NCBI GenBank assembly: GCA_963974055.1
Contig: CAXBCP010000023.1
Span: 11,666 to 75,665 of the forward strand
DNA length: 64,000 nucleotides
Direction of reading: 5' to 3'
Source of the DNA: an uncultured Rhodospirillaceae bacterium
Lineage (GTDB): Bacteria; Pseudomonadota; Alphaproteobacteria; MPNO01; UBA830
Below the pieces are notes generated by a model, which was not told where the DNA came from, did no database searches, and saw nothing but the letters and a program-made list of their open reading frames with translations. Shown piece after piece: positions 1-24,899 of this stretch. Within the stretch, counting starts at the first letter, position 1. Every line of letters starts with the position of its first letter. The position numbers and the translations under genes were made by a program.

Positions 1-1540
1 TAAAGCCGCCGGTTTCGCTGAGGTCTCCCTTTTCCATCACGGCCATCTGGCTGACCATGCGGGCGTCCACGGCGCCGGGTTTGCCGATCTGTGCGCCAAG
101 GACGGGCATGAAGATCAGGGCCATGAAGAGCGACGCGGTCAGCGTTGCGATCAGGGTGATCGGCAGGAATTTCATGAATTCGCCGACAAGCCCGGGCCAG
201 AACAGCAGCGGCAGGAACGCCGCCAGCGTCGTGGCGGTCGAGGCGATAATTGGCCACGACATGCGCTTTGCCGCTTCGGCATAGGCCTTCGCCCGATGGG
301 TGCCCTCGATCATGCGCCTGTCGGCATATTCCGTGACGACGATGGCGCCGTCGACCAGCAGCCCGACGGACAGGATAAGGGCGAACAGGACGACCACGTT
401 CACCGTCATGCCGAACGCGGACAGCACCAGGATGCCGGTCAGGAAGGACCCGGGAATCGATATGCCGACCAGCAGGCCGGTACGGACGCCGAGGGCAGCG
501 ACGATGATGATCATCACCAGCAGGATGGCCGACAGCACGTTGTTCTGAAGATCGCGCAGCATGTCGCGGATGTTCTTGGAATCGTCGCTCGAAAACGTAA
601 CCGTGATTTCCGCCGGCCAGGACTTGCGTTCCTCCGCGACGAGGTCTTTTACGGAATTCACGGTTTCGATGATGTTCTGGCCGGTGCGTTTTTTCACTTC
701 GATAGAGATCGCCGGTTCGCCGTTGAGGCGCGCGTAGTTGTCGCGGTCCTCGAAGGTGCGCCGGACCGACGCGATGTCGCGGACGGTGACCACGGAATCG
801 CCACTGGTCTTGAGCGGCATGTCGAGGATGTCGTTGACGTTCTCGAACAGGCCGGGAACCTTGATGGCGAAACTGCCTTTTTCGCCGCGCAGAGACCCGG
901 CGGCGATCAGCAGGTTGGAGCGGCTGACCGCGTCCAGGATGGCCCTGGGGTCGAGGGCGTAGGAATCGACCAGCAGGGGGTCGATGATGATTTCGACCTG
1001 TTCGTCGCGGTCGCCGCCGATCGTCGCCTCGAGAACGCTGGAAATGCCTTCGATTTTTTCCTGCAGGTCGCGGCTGATTTTCAGCAAGGTCCGCTCGGGA
1101 ACCTCGCCGCCCAGCGTGACGATGATGATGGGAAACAGGCTCAGATTGACCTCGTTCACGGTCGGCTCGTCCGCGGATTCGGGAAGTTCGGCCTTCGCTA
1201 TATCCACTTTTTCGCGGACATCGGCGAGGGCGAGGTCGGCGTTGAACCCGGCCTCGAATTCCAGCAGGACGTTCGCGCCGCCCTGATAGGCGCTGGACCG
1301 GATTTCCTTGATGCCCTCGATCGATTTGACCTCCGTCTCCATCGGACGGACGAGCAGGCGTTCCGCGTCTTCCGGTGAAATACCCTTCAGCGTCATCGAC
1401 ACGTAGATAATCGGGACATTGACGTCGGGCCGGGCTTCCTTGGGAATATTGAGGTAGGACGAAAACCCGGCGATCAGCAGCAATACGAGGACCGCAAGGA
1501 CGGTCCGCGAACGCGACAGGGCAGCGTCGATAATGCTCAT
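1..1540 (-). CDS. RND efflux permease subunit (AcrB/AcrD/AcrF family), 3' part runs off the window
   Basis: Manual translation from ATG at 1540: MSIIDAALSRSRTVLAVLVLLLIAGFSSYLNIPKEARPDVNVPIIYVSMTLKGISPEDAERLLVRPME, a typical AcrB N-terminus; overlaps the stop of the adaptor gene. Confidence 0.9.
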   Translation of the reverse strand, partial: MSIIDAALSRSRTVLAVLVLLLIAGFSSYLNIPKEARPDVNVPIIYVSMTLKGISPEDAERLLVRPMETEVKSIEGIKEIRSSAYQGGANVLLEFEAGFNADLALADVREKVDIAKAELPESADEPTVNEVNLSLFPIIIVTLGGEVPERTLLKISRDLQEKIEGISSVLEATIGGDRDEQVEIIIDPLLVDSYALDPRAILDAVSRSNLLIAAGSLRGEKGSFAIKVPGLFENVNDILDMPLKTSGDSVVTVRDIASVRRTFEDRDNYARLNGEPAISIEVKKRTGQNIIETVNSVKDLVAEERKSWPAEITVTFSSDDSKNIRDMLRDLQNNVLSAILLVMIIIVAALGVRTGLLVGISIPGSFLTGILVLSAFGMTVNVVVLFALILSVGLLVDGAIVVTEYADRRMIEGTHRAKAYAEAAKRMSWPIIASTATTLAAFLPLLFWPGLVGEFMKFLPITLIATLTASLFMALIFMPVLGAQIGKPGAVDARMVSQMAVMEKGDLSETGGF

Positions 1541-2619
1541 GACCCGGCGATTTCCGCTTCGGCCACCGGTTTCACCTTCTGGCCCGAGCGGACATATTCA
1601 TGGCCGACGGTGATCAGCCTGTCGCCGTCCTGCAGGCCCGATATCCATAACCCTTCGGGTGAATCGGAGAGGATCGAAATCGCCTTGAAGCGGACGATGT
1701 CGCCGTCATCGACCGTCCGGACACCGATACGGCCGTCATCCGACAGGGTCAGGACCGCGGGCGAAACCACATGCGCCTTTACCGGCGGCAGGGGGAGTGA
1801 GAGCTTGCCGGTCAGCCCGGCGCGTATCCGGTAGTCCGGGTTGGGAATTTCCAGCTCGATCCGGAACGACCGTGTCTGCGGGTCCGATACCGAGGCGATA
1901 TAGCGGATCGTGCCGGTCGCGGTTGTCCCGTCGATGAACGTAACCTGTCCCTGTTCGCCGACCGAAATGGAACCGATTTCGCGCTCCGACGCGGACCCGA
2001 CCGCGAGGACGGGATCGAGGTCGACGATCTTCGCAACCGCGTCGCCGGCCTTTACGTAATCGCCTTTTTCGACATGGCGCGTTTCCAGCACGCCCCGGAA
2101 CGGCGCCTTGAGGGTGGTGCGCGACAGGTCGATCTGCATCGACTTGGTTCTGGCGCGGGCGGCGTCCAGCTGGGCGCGGGCCTCGGCGAGCTTGGTGTCG
2201 GACCTGAACCCTTTTTTCGCCAGTTCCGTGGCGGCGCGGTATTCGATCTCGCGCTGCCGGACCAGCGCCGTCGCCTCCGAGAGCAGGGCATTGCGGTCTT
2301 CCGCGCTCTGGCGGGCGACGGTGTCGCCGGCGTCAAGGATGCGTCCCTCGACGGCGGGCACGTCGACGATCGGACCGGCGGTCTCCGCGCGTAAGGTGAC
2401 GAGGCGGGATTCTTCGGTGCGGCCGTTCACAACCAGGGACGCGTTTCGTATCCGGGCCGTCACCGACCGTACCCGCACGGATACGACCGGTTTTGCCGTT
2501 TCCTGTTTCCCGGCGCCGTTGGCGGCCGCCTGGCGGTCGGCGCCGCCGAACTGGCCGGAGGCGATCCAGGCGGTGGCGCCGATGGCGAGGATTCCGGCGA
2601 CGATGACGGACGTTCTCAT
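1537..2619 (-). CDS. RND efflux periplasmic adaptor (membrane fusion protein)
   Basis: N-terminal anchor, lipoyl-like halves, TLKAPFRG and DPQTRSFRIELEIPN motifs; upstream of the AcrB-like gene. Confidence 0.9.
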   Translation of the reverse strand: MRTSVIVAGILAIGATAWIASGQFGGADRQAAANGAGKQETAKPVVSVRVRSVTARIRNASLVVNGRTEESRLVTLRAETAGPIVDVPAVEGRILDAGDTVARQSAEDRNALLSEATALVRQREIEYRAATELAKKGFRSDTKLAEARAQLDAARARTKSMQIDLSRTTLKAPFRGVLETRHVEKGDYVKAGDAVAKIVDLDPVLAVGSASEREIGSISVGEQGQVTFIDGTTATGTIRYIASVSDPQTRSFRIELEIPNPDYRIRAGLTGKLSLPLPPVKAHVVSPAVLTLSDDGRIGVRTVDDGDIVRFKAISILSDSPEGLWISGLQDGDRLITVGHEYVRSGQKVKPVAEAEIAGS

Positions 2620-3197
2620 GTCTTTGCCTCCTGCGCGGAGGAGGGGATGCTTTCGTCCGCCGGACCGTGCATTTCATTCCTGAGCGCCGCGCCGACAAGT
2701 TCGTGCCGGTGGTTTTCAAGGTAATCGGCGGCGGCCCGGTAGATCGCCATGCCGTACCCCAGGGAAAACGCTTCGCCGCCGGGCATGTCCGGCCTGCGGC
2801 ATTCTTCCATTTCGCCGAGCCGGTGATTCAGCATTTCGACGCGCGCGGAGATCAGGTTGTCGATGTCCCTGGCGGGCAGAAGCTGGCCGAAGAACATCGT
2901 GAACAGAAAATCGGATCGCAGCCGGTCCGGTCCGGGCGGTTCTTCCAGCGCCTGGATCAGCGCAAGCCGCCCCGCCGGGGTGATCGAATAGACTTTCTTT
3001 GCCGGTTTGCCGTCCTGGCGGATGTCCTGCACCGAGATCAGGCCGGCCCCTTTCAGCGCGCTGAGAGCCGGATATATGGAGCCGAAGCCGGCCGCGTAGA
3101 AATAGGCGAAGGGGCCTTCTTCGCACTGTTTCTTGATTTCATAACCCGTGGCGTCGCCGCGGGAAAGAACACCCAGACAAAGTGTTTTAACGTCCAT
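2616..3197 (-). CDS. PadR family transcriptional regulator
   Basis: LGVLSRGDATGYEIKK...GSIYPALSAL...KKVYSITPAGR PadR signature; heads the efflux operon. Confidence 0.9.
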   Translation of the reverse strand: MDVKTLCLGVLSRGDATGYEIKKQCEEGPFAYFYAAGFGSIYPALSALKGAGLISVQDIRQDGKPAKKVYSITPAGRLALIQALEEPPGPDRLRSDFLFTMFFGQLLPARDIDNLISARVEMLNHRLGEMEECRRPDMPGGEAFSLGYGMAIYRAAADYLENHRHELVGAALRNEMHGPADESIPSSAQEAKT

Positions 3198-3379: not shown

Positions 3380-3488
3380 GGATGTCCGCATTTGCGTTGA
3401 AGAAATGTGTCGGATTTTTTTACAGTTTCGTGACGGCCGACCGCCTGTTTCGTGCTTAAGGTATTGATAAGTAACGGTTATGAAGAAC

Positions 3489-3504
3489 TGGCATGAGTCT
3501 TGCA
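3489..3504 (+). promoter_or_regulatory. Sigma54 (-24/-12) promoter
   Basis: TGGCATG-AGTC-TTGCA matches TGGCACG-N4-TTGCW with correct GG/GC spacing. Confidence 0.65.
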
Positions 3505-3515
3505 TACGATATACC

Positions 3516-3816
3516 GTTGTATTCGCGGGCCGGTGAACGAAGCGTATTCCGCATTAAAGGGATGGGCGTCGGAAGCCGGATTGAATTCGTCCGGGGGTGC
3601 CGGACGCCGCATGTTTGAGTTGAGAAATCCAAAACGGGCAATGCCTACCCTGCCTGTTTGGAGGTTGCGCTGCAGACGCTTCGGCAAATGTGGTGCGACT
3701 GATGGGCTGCCGGATGCCTACCCCCGGCAGGTCGTCATGCGGACTGTCTGACGCCTACCCCGGACAGTCCCCAAAAAGGCGGCGGTTCAGCGTATCCGGA
3801 CCGCCGCCGCTTTTTT
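3516..3816 (+). ncRNA. Candidate small RNA with three stem-loops sharing the loop AYGCCTACCC
   Basis: Hairpins at 3632-3659, 3707-3730 and 3741-3770, each with a 10-nt loop (ATGCCTACCC, ATGCCTACCC, ACGCCTACCC); upstream sigma54 promoter and downstream terminator; 5' end estimated from promoter position. Confidence 0.65.
3773..3816. terminator. Rho-independent terminator, probably bidirectional
   Basis: AAAAA-GGCGGCGGT...ACCGCCGCC-GC-TTTTTT. Confidence 0.75.
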
Positions 3817-3902: not shown

Positions 3903-3909
3903 TTGGCTG
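3903..3909 (+). repeat. Left attachment core TTGGCTG
   Basis: Identical to 24825-24831; context GAGATTGGCTG versus GAGATTTGGCTG. Confidence 0.75.
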
Positions 3910-4005
3910 CCCTTCTTGAACACGTATAGAACCAATTGTCTCGCGCCGGAGGCTGAATTTCGCAGGCTCATTCAAGAAATTTCTAATCTCGACGCGGCGG
4001 CATAG
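3904..4005 (+). other. Displaced C-terminal coding segment of the island recombinase (WLPFLNTYRTNCLAPEAEFRRLIQEISNLDAAA*)
   Basis: Open frame starting at the att core TGG CTG, the same two codons the recombinase reads in frame at 24826-24831; has no start codon of its own. Confidence 0.7.
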
Positions 4006-4302: not shown

Positions 4303-6516
4303 TTACTCGGGCCGAACGATCTTATGGTCGACCAGCGGTCCTTCAAGAATCTTGCTCACGCCGCTCCGCTCATTCGTAGTCGCGATCACGAGCTCCTGAG
4401 CGGCCCTACTCGCCCCAAGATACACGCGGGAAATGTAGCGCCTTTTGGCACCGATCCCCATGCCATCAACCGACCAATCGGCGTCGTCTAGATTTACGAG
4501 AAACACGGAATCAAACTGTAGTCCCGCCACGTATTCCGGCATGCTAAGGACGCATCTCTTCTTTGCGTATCTCAACTCTCGCATGTCATCGCGGGACACC
4601 ACAGTGACCACTTTGTCTTTGACCCTCGATGCCATCATGTACGTCTTGAAGCGCTCTTCGTTCATACAGAGGACTGCCACCTGCCGGCCGCCTCCATCCA
4701 AGGCGTTCGCTCTCCGGTTCGCCTCCTCCAAAACGCTATCGATCATTTCGATGTCGGTCTCGAACTCCCAGAGCTCTGGAACCGGCCCGCTTTCCCGGCT
4801 TGAATTGCCGGAGTATTCTCGAAATTCCCCCTCCAGATCCAGCGCAGGAAAGCTCGCATCCAGCCCGGCGAGCAGCTCGACGATTTCCGGCGTCGACCGG
4901 TATACTTTCTCAAGATCGACCTGTTCGGACGGCCCAATGCCAGGGTTGCGGAACCGCTTTCCGCCCACATTCAGGGCGTTGTCGGAGGTGCTCTGCTTCA
5001 GGTCGTAGGCCATGAGAAGCGGCCACTTCCCGTCTACGCGTGCCCGGGTTGCGAAAAGGTTGTGGAAAACCATCGCCTCAACCCGATTGAAGTAGTGATA
5101 CTCGTCCACGAAAATGGCGTCGAACCCGACGGAATCGCGGAGTTGATCCCATTCGTGCAGGACGAGATATCTTTCGAAATCGGATATCATCTGGTCCATA
5201 CTCAGGAAATTCTCGGCCCGAAGTGCTTGGCGGTATTTCTCGTGAAGTTCTAGAAGCAGCTTCCGATCAGCCTCGGTCTTGAGCTCCATCTGCCATCTCT
5301 CTCGTGTAGTCGTGACATACCGAGCGGCTTCAGTCGTTCCCTTCCGGATTTTCTCCGCATCGAGAATACACGCGAATTCGTTTCCGATTTCCTGAATTAG
5401 AGTGTCGGGCGGATCGTCATCATCGAAGATCTCCAGCAAACTCTCGCATTGTTTGCGGAGCGTAAGCACGAAACGCGGATGCAATCGGATTTCCTTGATC
5501 GCGTCGCGTATTAGCATTGCCTGTATCTCTCGGCCTTCCATTCCGTCTGAGGAGAGTGGGGTAAGGCCCTTTTTCTCGTAGCTTAGCAACTCGCGTGCAA
5601 GCTCGTAGAGCGTGCCGACCCAGAGCTTCGGCTTTCCGTCCACGGTCTGAAGAGACGCCCATCTCTCGGTGGGGTCGAGCGCGTGGAACGTTTGCCTGAG
5701 AACGTCGTGGGCCAGAGCGGAACTGTGCGTCAGGAACGCGAACCTCTTTTGGTTCTCGCCGTCAGCGTCCTCATAGAGGTCCCTCAAGCATTTTACGGCC
5801 ATCGCCTGTGTCTTTCCTGTTCCTGCCGCGCCGCGCAGGCGCACAGGGGCGGAATAGTCTTTTTCGACGAATGCCAGCTGCTCTTTATTAAGCTTGTATT
5901 GGTACCATTCTTGCAGCGTTCCGGACGAACTGAGGTCCAGCTTCTTGGGCATCAACAAGAGGATACCGTATTCTCCGACTGTCGATGTCCGTTCTTTGTC
6001 GTCCTTAACCAAGGCGTCAAGAAACCCTTCCTTGGCACGTTCGTAGACCGTATAGCTAATATTCAAACCATTGAAGCCCTGTGTTTCGGACGTCACTGCA
6101 AAAACGAAAAGGTTGGTGTTGTCGCCCTGCGGCGATTGGTCGAAGTGGAGCCGCGGCCCCCCCGGTCGCCTAGACGGCGCGGCATAGATCGAAAGGAGTG
6201 ATCCCTCACGGTAGGGTTGCCACGCAATCGGCAATGAAATGTTGCGGTCGAATTGTCGCATCCCCACACGGGCGATGCGACTCAGAAGAGCAATCGAACT
6301 GATCTCCGGGCTGAAGATCACCGCGTCGGCGACCACGAAAGCGCTTGTTTCGTCGGCGTCGTCCGTAAGTATATATACGATATCATTTAGTTCGACCTTT
6401 CGAAGACCCAAGGCATTGTCGGGAATATCGAAATTTTCGAACCAAGACTCGTCGATCAGCGCGGAATCAAGCGCAGAGAGAGCGGACCCGACAATAACAA
6501 CCCCCTTATACGCCAT
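4303..6516 (-). CDS. UvrD/REP-like superfamily 1 helicase with an uncharacterised N-terminal region
   Basis: GAAGTGKT (I), FLTHSSAL (Ia), IFVDEYH (II), YDLKQS (III), VYRSTPEI (IV), GLQFDSVFL (V), YLGASRA (VI). Confidence 0.8.
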   Translation of the reverse strand: MAYKGVVIVGSALSALDSALIDESWFENFDIPDNALGLRKVELNDIVYILTDDADETSAFVVADAVIFSPEISSIALLSRIARVGMRQFDRNISLPIAWQPYREGSLLSIYAAPSRRPGGPRLHFDQSPQGDNTNLFVFAVTSETQGFNGLNISYTVYERAKEGFLDALVKDDKERTSTVGEYGILLLMPKKLDLSSSGTLQEWYQYKLNKEQLAFVEKDYSAPVRLRGAAGTGKTQAMAVKCLRDLYEDADGENQKRFAFLTHSSALAHDVLRQTFHALDPTERWASLQTVDGKPKLWVGTLYELARELLSYEKKGLTPLSSDGMEGREIQAMLIRDAIKEIRLHPRFVLTLRKQCESLLEIFDDDDPPDTLIQEIGNEFACILDAEKIRKGTTEAARYVTTTRERWQMELKTEADRKLLLELHEKYRQALRAENFLSMDQMISDFERYLVLHEWDQLRDSVGFDAIFVDEYHYFNRVEAMVFHNLFATRARVDGKWPLLMAYDLKQSTSDNALNVGGKRFRNPGIGPSEQVDLEKVYRSTPEIVELLAGLDASFPALDLEGEFREYSGNSSRESGPVPELWEFETDIEMIDSVLEEANRRANALDGGGRQVAVLCMNEERFKTYMMASRVKDKVVTVVSRDDMRELRYAKKRCVLSMPEYVAGLQFDSVFLVNLDDADWSVDGMGIGAKRRYISRVYLGASRAAQELVIATTNERSGVSKILEGPLVDHKIVRPE

Positions 6517-23276: not shown

Positions 23277-24858
23277 AAACAAATCCAAAAGCGAGGCCGC
23301 CGGCGATGTCAGCCGGGCGGTGCTCTATGCCCGCGTCTCCTCCAAAGAACAAGAGAAGGAAGGCTTCTCGATCCCGGCACAGCTTAAGCTGCTGAAGGAG
23401 TACGCCGCGCGCGAAGGGTTGTCCGTCGTTCAAGAGTTCGTTGACGTGGAAACGGCCAAGCAGACGGGCCGCACCAACTTCTCTGAGATGATCGCATTTC
23501 TGCGTGCCAATCCCGGGGTTCGGATCATTCTGGTCGAGAAGACCGACCGCCTTTACCGAAACCTTAAGGACTGGGTGATGCTCGACGAGATTGACGTCGA
23601 AATCCATCTCGTCAAGGAAGGCGTGGTCTTGTCGCGTGACTCGAGGTCGTCGGAGAAGTTCATGCATGGCATCAAGGTTTTGATGGCCAAGAACTACATC
23701 GACAACCTGTCCGAGGAAGCGCGTAAAGGTATGCAGGAGAAGGCCGAGCAGGGCATCTGGCCGACCAAAGCGCCGCTCGGCTATCGCAATATCACGGGGC
23801 CGGACGGAAAGAAGATCATCGACGTCAATCCCGAGGTCGCCCCGATCGTTGGAAAGCTGTTCGAATGGTATGCCGCTGGAAGTTATTCGCTGAAGGAGCT
23901 TGGCAGAAAGGCGGCAGCGGAGGGTTTCCGCTATCCGCGGTCCGGCGCCCGTGTTCCGAACAGCACGATCCACACGATCCTGCGGAACCGGCTCTATACC
24001 GGCCAGTTCGAATGGAACGGCAAGTTGATCGTGGGTAAGCACGAACCGCTGGTTTCGGCTGAGCTTTGGCAGCGCGTTCAGGACGTGCTCGACGGTCGGA
24101 ACGCCAAAAAGCACCGGCGTATGAAACATGATTTCGCTTTTTCGGGGCTTATCGGCTGTGCGAAATGTGGCTGCTCGGTCGTCGGTGAGATCAAGAAGCA
24201 GAAATACATCTACTATCACTGTACCGGCTACGCCGATAAGTGCCGGGAGGATCCCGCCGCCTGCCGCAGGAAGTATGTTCGCGAGGAAGCGTTGGAGGCC
24301 CAGTTCTCGGAACTGCTTGGCAAGCTGTGTTTCGACGACGAAGTGCTGGAATGGGTGCGGGAGGCACTGCATGCTAGCAAAGCTGACGAACAGCGGGAAC
24401 ATGGTGAAGCAATTAGGCGGTTGAGGACTGAGTATGACCGCCTGCAGCACCGCATCGATGTGATGTATATCGATAAGTTGGACGGAAAAATCGGCGGCGA
24501 GTTCTTCGACCGGATGGCCGGAGATTGGCGGGAGGAACAGTCTCGTTGCCTGAAAGACATCGAACGCCACCAGGAAGCACAGCAGTCTTACATGGACGAG
24601 GGAGTGAAGATTCTCGAACTCGCGCAGAACGCTCAAACGCTGTTCGAACGCCAGCCCGCTCGAGAAAAGCGGCGATTACTGAACTTCGTACTTTCGAACT
24701 GCTCGTGGGACGATGGCGAATTGATCGCCGAATTCCGGCAACCCTTTGATTTATTGGCGAAAACCACTGCCACTTCCTCCCAAAAACGGGCAGAAAACGG
24801 CGGGAGTGTGATAAAAAAAGAGATTTGGCTGGGGAACCTGGATTCGAACCAGGACTAA
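23263..24858 (+). CDS. Large serine recombinase (integrase)
   Basis: VLYARVSSKEQ catalytic Ser motif, VEKTDRLYRN, recombinase domain, CAKCG...YYHC zinc ribbon, coiled coil; last codons run antisense into the tRNA. Confidence 0.95.
   Translation: MPSTTNKSKSEAAGDVSRAVLYARVSSKEQEKEGFSIPAQLKLLKEYAAREGLSVVQEFVDVETAKQTGRTNFSEMIAFLRANPGVRIILVEKTDRLYRNLKDWVMLDEIDVEIHLVKEGVVLSRDSRSSEKFMHGIKVLMAKNYIDNLSEEARKGMQEKAEQGIWPTKAPLGYRNITGPDGKKIIDVNPEVAPIVGKLFEWYAAGSYSLKELGRKAAAEGFRYPRSGARVPNSTIHTILRNRLYTGQFEWNGKLIVGKHEPLVSAELWQRVQDVLDGRNAKKHRRMKHDFAFSGLIGCAKCGCSVVGEIKKQKYIYYHCTGYADKCREDPAACRRKYVREEALEAQFSELLGKLCFDDEVLEWVREALHASKADEQREHGEAIRRLRTEYDRLQHRIDVMYIDKLDGKIGGEFFDRMAGDWREEQSRCLKDIERHQEAQQSYMDEGVKILELAQNAQTLFERQPAREKRRLLNFVLSNCSWDDGELIAEFRQPFDLLAKTTATSSQKRAENGGSVIKKEIWLGNLDSNQD
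24825..24831 (+). repeat. Right attachment core TTGGCTG
   Basis: Overlaps the tRNA-Gln 3' CCA and recombinase codons W522/L523. Confidence 0.75.
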
Positions 24859-24899
24859 GCGGGTCAGAGCCACTCGTTCTACCGTTAAACTATTCCCCA
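24826..24899 (-). tRNA. tRNA-Gln (anticodon CTG)
   Basis: Reverse complement TGGGGAATAGTTTAACGGTAGAACGAGTGGCTCTGACCCGCTTAGTCCTGGTTCGAATCCAGGTTCCCCAGCCA folds as a cloverleaf with a GTTCGAATC T-loop and encoded CCA. Confidence 0.95.

Follow-up and report, generated by a model that had tools for sequence, protein, structure and literature searches.

A predicted small RNA with three like-looped hairpins, apparently a member of the PEP-CTERM-box sigma-54 regulon of an uncultured Rhodospirillaceae bacterium

The ar14 or 'cuckoo' RNAs, which include CcsR1-4 of Rhodobacter and NfeR1 of Sinorhizobium, are alphaproteobacterial trans-acting small RNAs (sRNAs) with multiple hairpins and C-rich, anti-Shine-Dalgarno loops. 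Transcription by sigma-54 is known for other sRNAs: Qrr1-4 of Vibrio are driven by LuxO and sigma-54, CrcZ of Pseudomonas by CbrB and sigma-54, and Pxr of Myxococcus is a sigma-54-dependent sRNA with three stem-loops. CpxQ and SroC represent the sRNAs that derive from 3' untranslated regions (3' UTRs). Here we describe a predicted sRNA gene in a 64-kb stretch of DNA (contig CAXBCP010000023.1; the window, that is, the whole 64,000 nucleotides that were analysed) from an uncultured Rhodospirillaceae bacterium, and its apparent place in the regulon of PrsK and PrsR, the sigma-54 switch of the PEP-CTERM/exosortase system. The organism is known solely from metagenome bins; the source genome is a bin of 96 contigs with 62% G+C, in which genes were called crudely, by a heuristic based on open reading frames (ORFs) and GC3.

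PEP-CTERM/exosortase systems occur widely among environmental bacteria and are the basis of the flocs and biofilms that these form. To our knowledge, almost nothing is known of their regulation beyond the PrsK/PrsR sigma-54 switch, and the same is true of the signal of PrsK; a search of the open literature found no sRNA linked to PEP-CTERM, PrsR or exosortase. The cis-regulatory region of PEP-CTERM genes consists of a 17-nt motif ending in TTTACA, a spacer with a mean of 62.8 nt and a sigma-54 motif with its -24 (GG) and -12 (GC) elements, and the phylogenetic profile of this region matches those of PrsK, PrsR and PrsT (Haft et al., 2006; PMC1569441).

Promoter architecture and regulon

The locus is a stand-alone gene and not a leader, and an sRNA of about 300 nt is predicted to be transcribed from window positions 3515-3816 of the forward strand, with its start near 3515 (Table 1). 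The preliminary description of this stretch, made from the letters alone, had proposed here an unannotated, structured sRNA driven by sigma-54, and this proposal gains support from the conserved promoter, the covarying stems and fixed loops described below, the sub-threshold standing of the one Rfam match and the lack of dispersal of the element. Each part of the layout that it had drawn is present. The near-consensus -24/-12 promoter, TGGCAT-N5-TTGCA (TGGCAT gagtc TTGCA, window 3489-3504), has one mismatch to TGGCAC-N5-TTGCW; the three hairpins H1, H2 and H3 have different stems and near-identical 10-nt loops (AUGCCUACCC twice and ACGCCUACCC once) whose common, C-rich form is (A)(U/C)GCCUACCC; and a strong terminator with a U6 tail, preceded by the A-rich spacer CCCCAAAAAGG, ends at 3816. 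The 303-nt RNA has a minimum free energy of -141.8 kcal/mol (z = -4.2 against shuffled sequences). A fourth hairpin, Hv, was absent from the earlier account.

Table 1. Features of the sRNA locus and of the operon upstream of it, in window coordinates.
Feature	Position	Strand	Remarks
PEP-CTERM box ('motif 1' of Haft et al., 2006; presumed PrsR enhancer), TGTCGGATTTTTTTACA	3408-3424	+	17-nt TGTCGG-N6-TTTACA
IHF-type bending site (putative), TATCAATACCTTA on the - strand, fits WATCAANNNNTTR	3457-3469	-	Read from the sequence
Sigma-54 -24/-12 promoter, TGGCATgagtcTTGCA	3489-3504	+	One mismatch to the consensus; kept in homologues as TGGCAC-N5-TTGCA
Predicted sRNA transcript, ~302 nt	3515-3816	+	Predicted +1 to U-tract of terminator
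Variable 5' domain	3515-3627	+	First ~110 nt; sequence poorly conserved among homologues
Hairpin H1, loop AUGCCUACCC at 3641-3650	3628-3662	+	Sequence, fold, alignment A3
Hairpin Hv, variable sequence, without conserved loop, between H1 and H2	3663-3700	+	Fold, alignment A3
Hairpin H2, loop AUGCCUACCC at 3714-3723	3701-3736	+	Sequence, alignment A3
Hairpin H3, loop ACGCCUACCC at 3751-3760	3741-3770	+	Invariant U.G pair beside closing G-C
Intrinsic terminator, stem GGCGGCGGUUC/GGACCGCCGCC, loop AGCGUAUCC (3789-3797), U6 tail	3778-3816	+	G+C-rich
Divergent operon upstream: padR (2616-3197), hlyD-family gene (1537-2619), acrB-family gene (up to 1540)	2-3197	-	

The box begins 81 nt ahead of the TGGCA of the promoter, with a spacer of 64 nt to TGGCATgagtcTTGCA, and the same pair recurs in the source genome, where about 17 promoters of the form TGGCAY-N5-TTGCW are preceded by a TGTCGG-N6-TTTACA box. 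At 15 of these roughly 17 promoters, the sRNA's included, the box starts 79-83 nt before the promoter, and at two it starts 122-139 nt before it; most precede ORFs for secreted proteins whose last part consists of VPEP, a hydrophobic stretch and RRR, the mark of PEP-CTERM proteins. The genes for PrsK (TIGR02916, 776 bits), PrsR (TIGR02915, 700 bits) and PrsT (TIGR02917, 457 bits), all of which score above the curated cut-offs, stand in tandem on contig C1 and are adjoined by the gene of a glycosyltransferase of the XrtA system. The locus therefore has motif 1, the spacer of about 63 nt with its sigma-54 motif, the same pair at PEP-CTERM genes and an encoded PrsK, PrsR and PrsT in common with the region described by Haft et al. 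(2006), and it differs from that region in that the promoter drives a non-coding RNA. From this architecture, the sRNA apparently belongs to the PrsK/PrsR PEP-CTERM-box sigma-54 regulon, and its transcription would be expected to depend on RpoN and PrsR. Of 14 box promoters of the genome, 6 have a YAA-N4-TTGAWW element at about -31 from TGGCA, and the consensus of the full set shows it too; an IHF-like element is also present in the homologues of the sRNA, and IHF may be predicted to bind at 3457-3469.

Two more box/sigma-54 promoters of the genome precede something other than a PEP-CTERM gene. One, at C15:29566-29742 (-), would give a terminated RNA of 150 nt with three GCGUAG/GCGUAU words, and the other, at C22 around 68940-69324 (-), a transcript of about 290 nt with a possible ORF of 58 codons. 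We considered the C15 transcript of about 150 nt as a conserved partner of the sRNA and rejected it because it is not conserved in relatives.

The locus resembles Qrr1-4 and CrcZ in that an NtrC-family regulator and sigma-54 would drive an sRNA as the post-transcriptional output of a two-component system, and CrcZ also in the many repeats of a single motif. The Qrr RNAs differ from it in their single-stranded seed, CrcZ differs in being an A-rich sponge for Hfq/Crc, and none of them has a sequence or Rfam relation to the window sRNA. With Pxr it shares the sigma-54 promoter, the multi-hairpin form and a link to the control of social or surface behaviour, but Pxr comes from another phylum, is without a repeated loop word and gives no Rfam match. 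An sRNA driven by a two-component system and sigma-54 and carrying repeated seeds is a kind already known; the family found here, in marine alphaproteobacteria, is uncatalogued. At gathering thresholds, the sole match of Rfam 15 in the whole window was a tRNA away from the sRNA. The preliminary description had recognised no known family in the loop, and in the covariance search at E <= 10 only ar7 (RF02342) was listed for the sRNA, matched over its full length with 24.8 bits against a gathering threshold of 60 (E = 0.014), with no match to cuckoo/ar14, RsmZ, CrcZ or Pxr. No Rfam family matched any of 12 related loci.

Conserved structure and the hairpin-terminator module

A BLAST search over 41 relatives located the 3' two-thirds of the sRNA, which extend from H1 through the terminator, in members of the same genus and of further genera of its family; the holders of the exact pattern are uncultured Rhodospirillaceae or Alphaproteobacteria bins. 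A scan of metagenomes added marine contigs that bear homologues, and in one Tara Oceans contig (L139) the 212-nt 3' domain, H1 to terminator, is identical to that of the window. From the -24 element of the promoter to the terminator the homologues measure 325-368 nt, and they retain the upstream box, IHF-like site and sigma-54 promoter. One relative has a second copy of the sRNA (L015, G001:C37:20181-20380), without the promoter and the first ~40 nt, which abuts a transposase/integrase-core fragment.

We aligned 13 distinct three-hairpin homologues from relatives and marine metagenomes (alignment A3), for which RNAalifold gave five helices that together comprise 52 pairs. Compensatory changes occur in 18 of these pairs, compared with 9.0 +/- 1.9 in shuffled alignments (none of 500 shuffles reached 18). 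In 96% of the cells the bases pair, compared with 33-48% when the partner columns are slid. Compensatory changes were seen in 5 of the 11 pairs of H1 (helix 1; 95.8% paired), 3 of the 8 pairs of Hv (helix 2; 85.6%) and 7 of the 13 pairs of H2 (helix 3; 96.4%). H3 has one and the same stem sequence in all 13 homologues, whereas the stems of H1 and H2 covary, and the loops of H1, H2 and H3 are invariant throughout. The preliminary description had taken like loops on unlike stems as a sign of selection on RNA structure, and the compensatory pairs around invariant loops bear this out. An anti-seed in the 5' domain that would mask one of the loops was sought and rejected (mean z = -0.27 over the 13 homologues).

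The loop word GCCTACCC is uncommon: the window has three copies, all within the sRNA locus, and the two strands of the 4.92-Mb genome together have 35, against 232 of the reversed word. Given one copy, the probability that two more fall within 118 nt of it by chance is about 9e-8. Save for a partial match of 75 nt on contig C44, the genome has no second copy of the 351-nt region. With a single-copy region and so rare a word, dispersal as a repeat of the REP/MITE type, which the preliminary description had named as an observation that would refute it, does not apply and is ruled out.

The 75 nt matched on C44 form the 3' end of a PEP-CTERM gene with a box/sigma-54 promoter of its own (C44:26669/26790). 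There, at C44:27565-27643 (+) (locus L002, 1498-1576), a hairpin like H3 with the loop ACGCCAACCC overlaps the stop codon (..KRRKTV*) and is followed by the same terminator with the loop AGCGUAUCC, an arrangement that is kept in the orthologues of four relatives. This hairpin and terminator are a possible 3'-UTR-derived sRNA: as with CpxQ and SroC, a module at the 3' end of a PEP-CTERM mRNA could be released as an sRNA that shares its seed, with the difference that in the window genome the hairpin overlaps the stop codon of the gene and that release is hypothetical here. Two further sites in the genome recall the module. A PEP-CTERM gene at C33:2173-2241 (-) (..RRRKQSV*) ends in a related hairpin, with the loop AAGCCAAUCC, over its stop codon (40 bits with the module model), and a second candidate sRNA of about 200 nt at C44:7044-7330 (-) (L169) has the box variant CGTCGGGATTCTTTACG, an IHF-like site, TGGCATGTTATTTGCT and a hairpin with the C-rich loop CAUCCCCACCUG followed by a terminator, a weak match to the model (30.5 bits).

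The model in question is a covariance model that we built from an alignment of 17 sequences of the hairpin and the terminator (alignment A1), in which 95.8% of the cells are paired and 9 pairs are compensatory. Four of the 10 pairs of the H3 hairpin stem change on both sides in this alignment, and 5 of the 11 pairs of the terminator stem (helix 2; 96.8% paired) are compensatory; the loop, the closing G-C and the adjacent U.G pair are invariant in all 17 sequences, across families. With this model, the GCCWACCC hairpin and its terminator were found in 33 of 78 genomes of the order and in 16 of its 24 genera, and under strict filters, with 11 candidates scored per genome, there was no match in about 398 alphaproteobacterial genomes outside the order. 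A sigma-54 promoter precedes almost every strong match on the same strand, usually with a box about 80 nt further up, and the distance from promoter to module is 100-300 nt in short sRNAs with one hairpin and about 800 nt in PEP-CTERM mRNAs. The box-driven sRNA of less closely related families still has the C-rich loop, as UGACGCCAACCCCUGG in one and CCCCCAACCACCCCCCAACC in another, and the terminator loop AGCGUAUCC is conserved in families f1 and f4 and not in f5, f2 and f3. The presence of the module is associated with a detectable PrsR (12/12/4/50 genomes; odds ratio 12.5, p = 5e-5). Judged from its sequence, the window RNA is an expanded form of the module family, with three loops in the U variant.

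Possible partners of the loops

We then asked what the loops might do. In the mechanism that we propose, sigma-54 RNA polymerase would bind at 3489-3504 and be activated by PrsR on the box at 3408-3424, with an IHF-type bend between them, and the RNA would therefore be made together with the PEP-CTERM surface proteins. After a fast-evolving 5' domain, H1, H2 and H3 would each expose the same C-rich loop, and these three seeds could pair with G-rich GGGGUAGGC sites at ribosome-binding sites or mRNA 5' ends in the manner of the repeated anti-Shine-Dalgarno loops of the CcsR/NfeR1-type sRNAs. PrsK/PrsR would in this way gain a post-transcriptional, feed-forward arm. The features of an Hfq-type sRNA are present (a U-tailed intrinsic terminator, an A-rich single strand before it and a gene for Hfq, encoded on C27 with 59% identity to E. 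coli Hfq), and binding of Hfq is putative.

About 42 perfect complements of at least 10 nt that include the loop core were found, and three of these, spanning 10-12 nt, fall on mRNAs of the PEP-CTERM system. The gene of the XrtA-associated tyrosine autokinase at C1:242525 (TIGR03018, 252 bits), which follows that of the XrtA chain-length determinant (TIGR03007), has CGGGGUAGGCG immediately ahead of its start codon, an 11-nt complement of the H3 loop. At C38:17717, in the gene of a VWA protein whose tail is PEP-CTERM-like, GGGGUAGGCA precedes the ATG by 4 nt and is a 10-nt complement of the H2 loop. CAGGGUAGGCGU stands at the predicted +1 of the mRNA of a PepA-like PEP-CTERM protein, whose gene at C8:7215 has its own box variant and sigma-54 promoter, and is complementary to H1 or H3. 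Three other genomes of the genus retain the VWA site despite altered flanks, two retain the kinase site and one the PepA-like site. That three of about 10 start-region sites should fall in the approximately 1.5% of genes that belong to the PEP-CTERM system has p ~4e-4, in a test made post hoc. Loop complements of 8-10 nt are also 3-6 times as frequent in the 40 nt before called starts as those of variants unlike the Shine-Dalgarno sequence; called gene starts were used here in place of the criterion 'ORF within 40 nt', which was discarded for its baseline of about 20% with any word.

Several results weigh against this pairing model or against its reach. The enrichment before starts is no greater than that of the canonical GGGAGG variant, and likeness to the Shine-Dalgarno sequence may thus explain part of it. 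A duplex-energy target scan of 3894 start regions was uninformative, the reversed-loop control scoring as well in this genome of 62% G+C. Other genomes of the genus do not keep the perfect sites on bamA, an ABC permease and a response regulator-kinase, and these genes, with MscS, were rejected as targets on that ground. The autokinase site is absent outside the genus, many module-bearing genomes are without the XrtA chain-length gene, and TIGR03007 is found in only 12 of the 78 genomes, for which reasons the kinase was rejected as an order-wide target. For the ancestral loop GCCAACCC no convincing target appeared in this genome and eight others; the candidate sites of this variant lie mostly inside coding regions and were rejected. 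A simple seed would not need an invariant U.G pair, an H3 stem fixed in sequence or a conserved terminator loop, features that would suit recognition by a protein. Among the 24 genomes in which the module matched strongly, finally, only 12 gave a PrsR, a detection that is probably incomplete because few candidates were scored per genome. The preliminary description had offered a multivalent seed for GGGUAGGC leaders; the 10-12-nt complements on three PEP-CTERM/XrtA mRNAs lend this option some support, and their conservation stops at the genus. Since the kinase site is absent outside the genus and no GCCAACCC target was found, we therefore do no more than lean toward loops that act as seeds for GGGGUAGGC sites on mRNAs of the same system.

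The same loops, perhaps with the related AGCGUAUCC loop of the terminator, might otherwise, as the preliminary description had also suggested, bind an RNA-binding protein, the sRNA titrating that protein from the single-hairpin 3' ends of PEP-CTERM mRNAs or delivering it to them. We consider such a sponge or decoy unlikely, but it accounts well for several features: the loop with its closing G-C and U.G pair, unchanged in 17 of 17 module sequences across families; the wholly invariant stem of H3 in a three-hairpin family in which H1 and H2 covary; the terminator loop, which shares the GCNUAYCC pattern and is conserved in f1 and f4; the same hairpin at the end of PEP-CTERM mRNAs, over their stop codon; the failure to find an order-wide mRNA target; and a multivalency typical of RsmZ and CrcZ. 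Yet there is neither a known nor a co-located candidate protein, families f5, f2 and f3 retain the sRNA without conserving the terminator loop, and there are conserved perfect complements on mRNAs of the PEP-CTERM system. Within one genus, moreover, two loop variants occur, U in the sRNA and A in the mRNA tails, which agrees more readily with two sets of pairing targets than with a single protein site. The loops also lack GGA, the CsrA motif, and the A-rich motifs of Crc/Hfq, although a CsrA homologue is encoded at C2:70241-70417 (+) (42% identity to E. coli CsrA over 59 residues); a CsrA sponge of the CsrB or RsmY/Z type was rejected, as no conserved loop contains GGA and there is no Rfam match. 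A different account takes the module for a cis-acting 3'-end element that serves stability, processing or termination efficiency, with the three-hairpin RNA as a duplicated, largely inert or simply stabilised by-product that has no function in trans. The module does always stand directly before a terminator, at the end of both coding and non-coding box-driven transcripts; we think this account improbable all the same, for at least four families conserve stand-alone box/sigma-54 transcripts that consist of the hairpin only, H1 and H2 carry the same loop on covarying stems although they are distant from the 3' end, and the sRNA locus keeps its place beside the divergent padR-hlyD-acrB operon.

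It might also be argued that the RNA is a divergent member of the ar7 or ar14/'cuckoo'/CcsR group and hence not new. The ar7 match noted above is full-length, spans H2, H3 and the terminator, and has a similar three-hairpin layout, and the layout of the ar14 RNAs is likewise one C-rich loop repeated over several hairpins and then a terminator. The ar7 score, however, is below gathering and the loop sequences differ, and the sRNA is therefore not an ar7 member. As for ar14/'cuckoo'/CcsR/NfeR1, neither a CCUCCUCCC-type loop nor a match to the family model was found in the sRNA or its related loci; those RNAs have CCUCCUCCC or CCCCC where the window sRNA has GCCUACCC, their promoters are of other types, and they occur as tandem gene copies, where the window sRNA puts three loops in one RNA. 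With the silence of the module model in about 398 alphaproteobacterial genomes outside the order, under strict filters, added to this, we regard membership as very improbable. Hardly credible, in our view, is the remaining thought that the region is a dispersed repeat, a small protein-coding gene or an antisense feature. ORFs of 41-83 codons, called mechanically, do overlap it on both strands, and the truncated L015 copy sits beside a transposase fragment, but the region is single-copy with a rare loop word, the substitutions in the stems are compensatory and not codon-like, and the 5' domain, where an ORF might start, is not conserved.

A broader reading, which we offer tentatively and hold to be possible and no better than doubtful, is that the GCCWACCC hairpin serves the PrsK/PrsR regulon throughout the order as a portable riboregulatory module, present in 1-3 copies in stand-alone sRNAs and in one copy in some mRNAs, with the same loop presented to one partner. 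The mRNA copy would overlap the stop codon in some PEP-CTERM mRNAs and in the mRNA of a small protein; the partner could be the mRNAs of the exosortase or exopolysaccharide machinery or an undiscovered loop-specific protein; and the total transcription of the regulon would be summed in this manner and fed back on the export of surface polymers. If this were so, the PEP-CTERM/exosortase system would have its first known post-transcriptional layer.

We suggest that the sRNA probably tunes the PEP-CTERM export system post-transcriptionally. If true, an sRNA that is a core, conserved member of the regulon would add a post-transcriptional arm whose candidate targets are the XrtA-associated tyrosine autokinase and two PEP-CTERM proteins, and the RNA would serve as a compact marker transcript of PrsK/PrsR activity in marine metatranscriptomes. 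With it, the group of alphaproteobacterial sRNAs in which a C-rich seed is repeated gains an uncatalogued family, and the use of the same hairpin to end mRNAs is unusual.

Surroundings of the locus

The locus is syntenic, adjoining the divergent padR-hlyD-acrB operon in several genomes, and the genes downstream of it differ or converge. In the window, the terminator is followed closely by the tail of a recombinase (3904-4005), a UvrD-like helicase (4303-6516) and restriction-modification cargo, which form a putative island at about 3900-24900. No repeat of the 3' end of the sRNA occurs elsewhere in the genome, and the sRNA gene is therefore a neighbour of the island and is not duplicated as an att site. 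A tRNA gene lies at window 24829-24899 (-).

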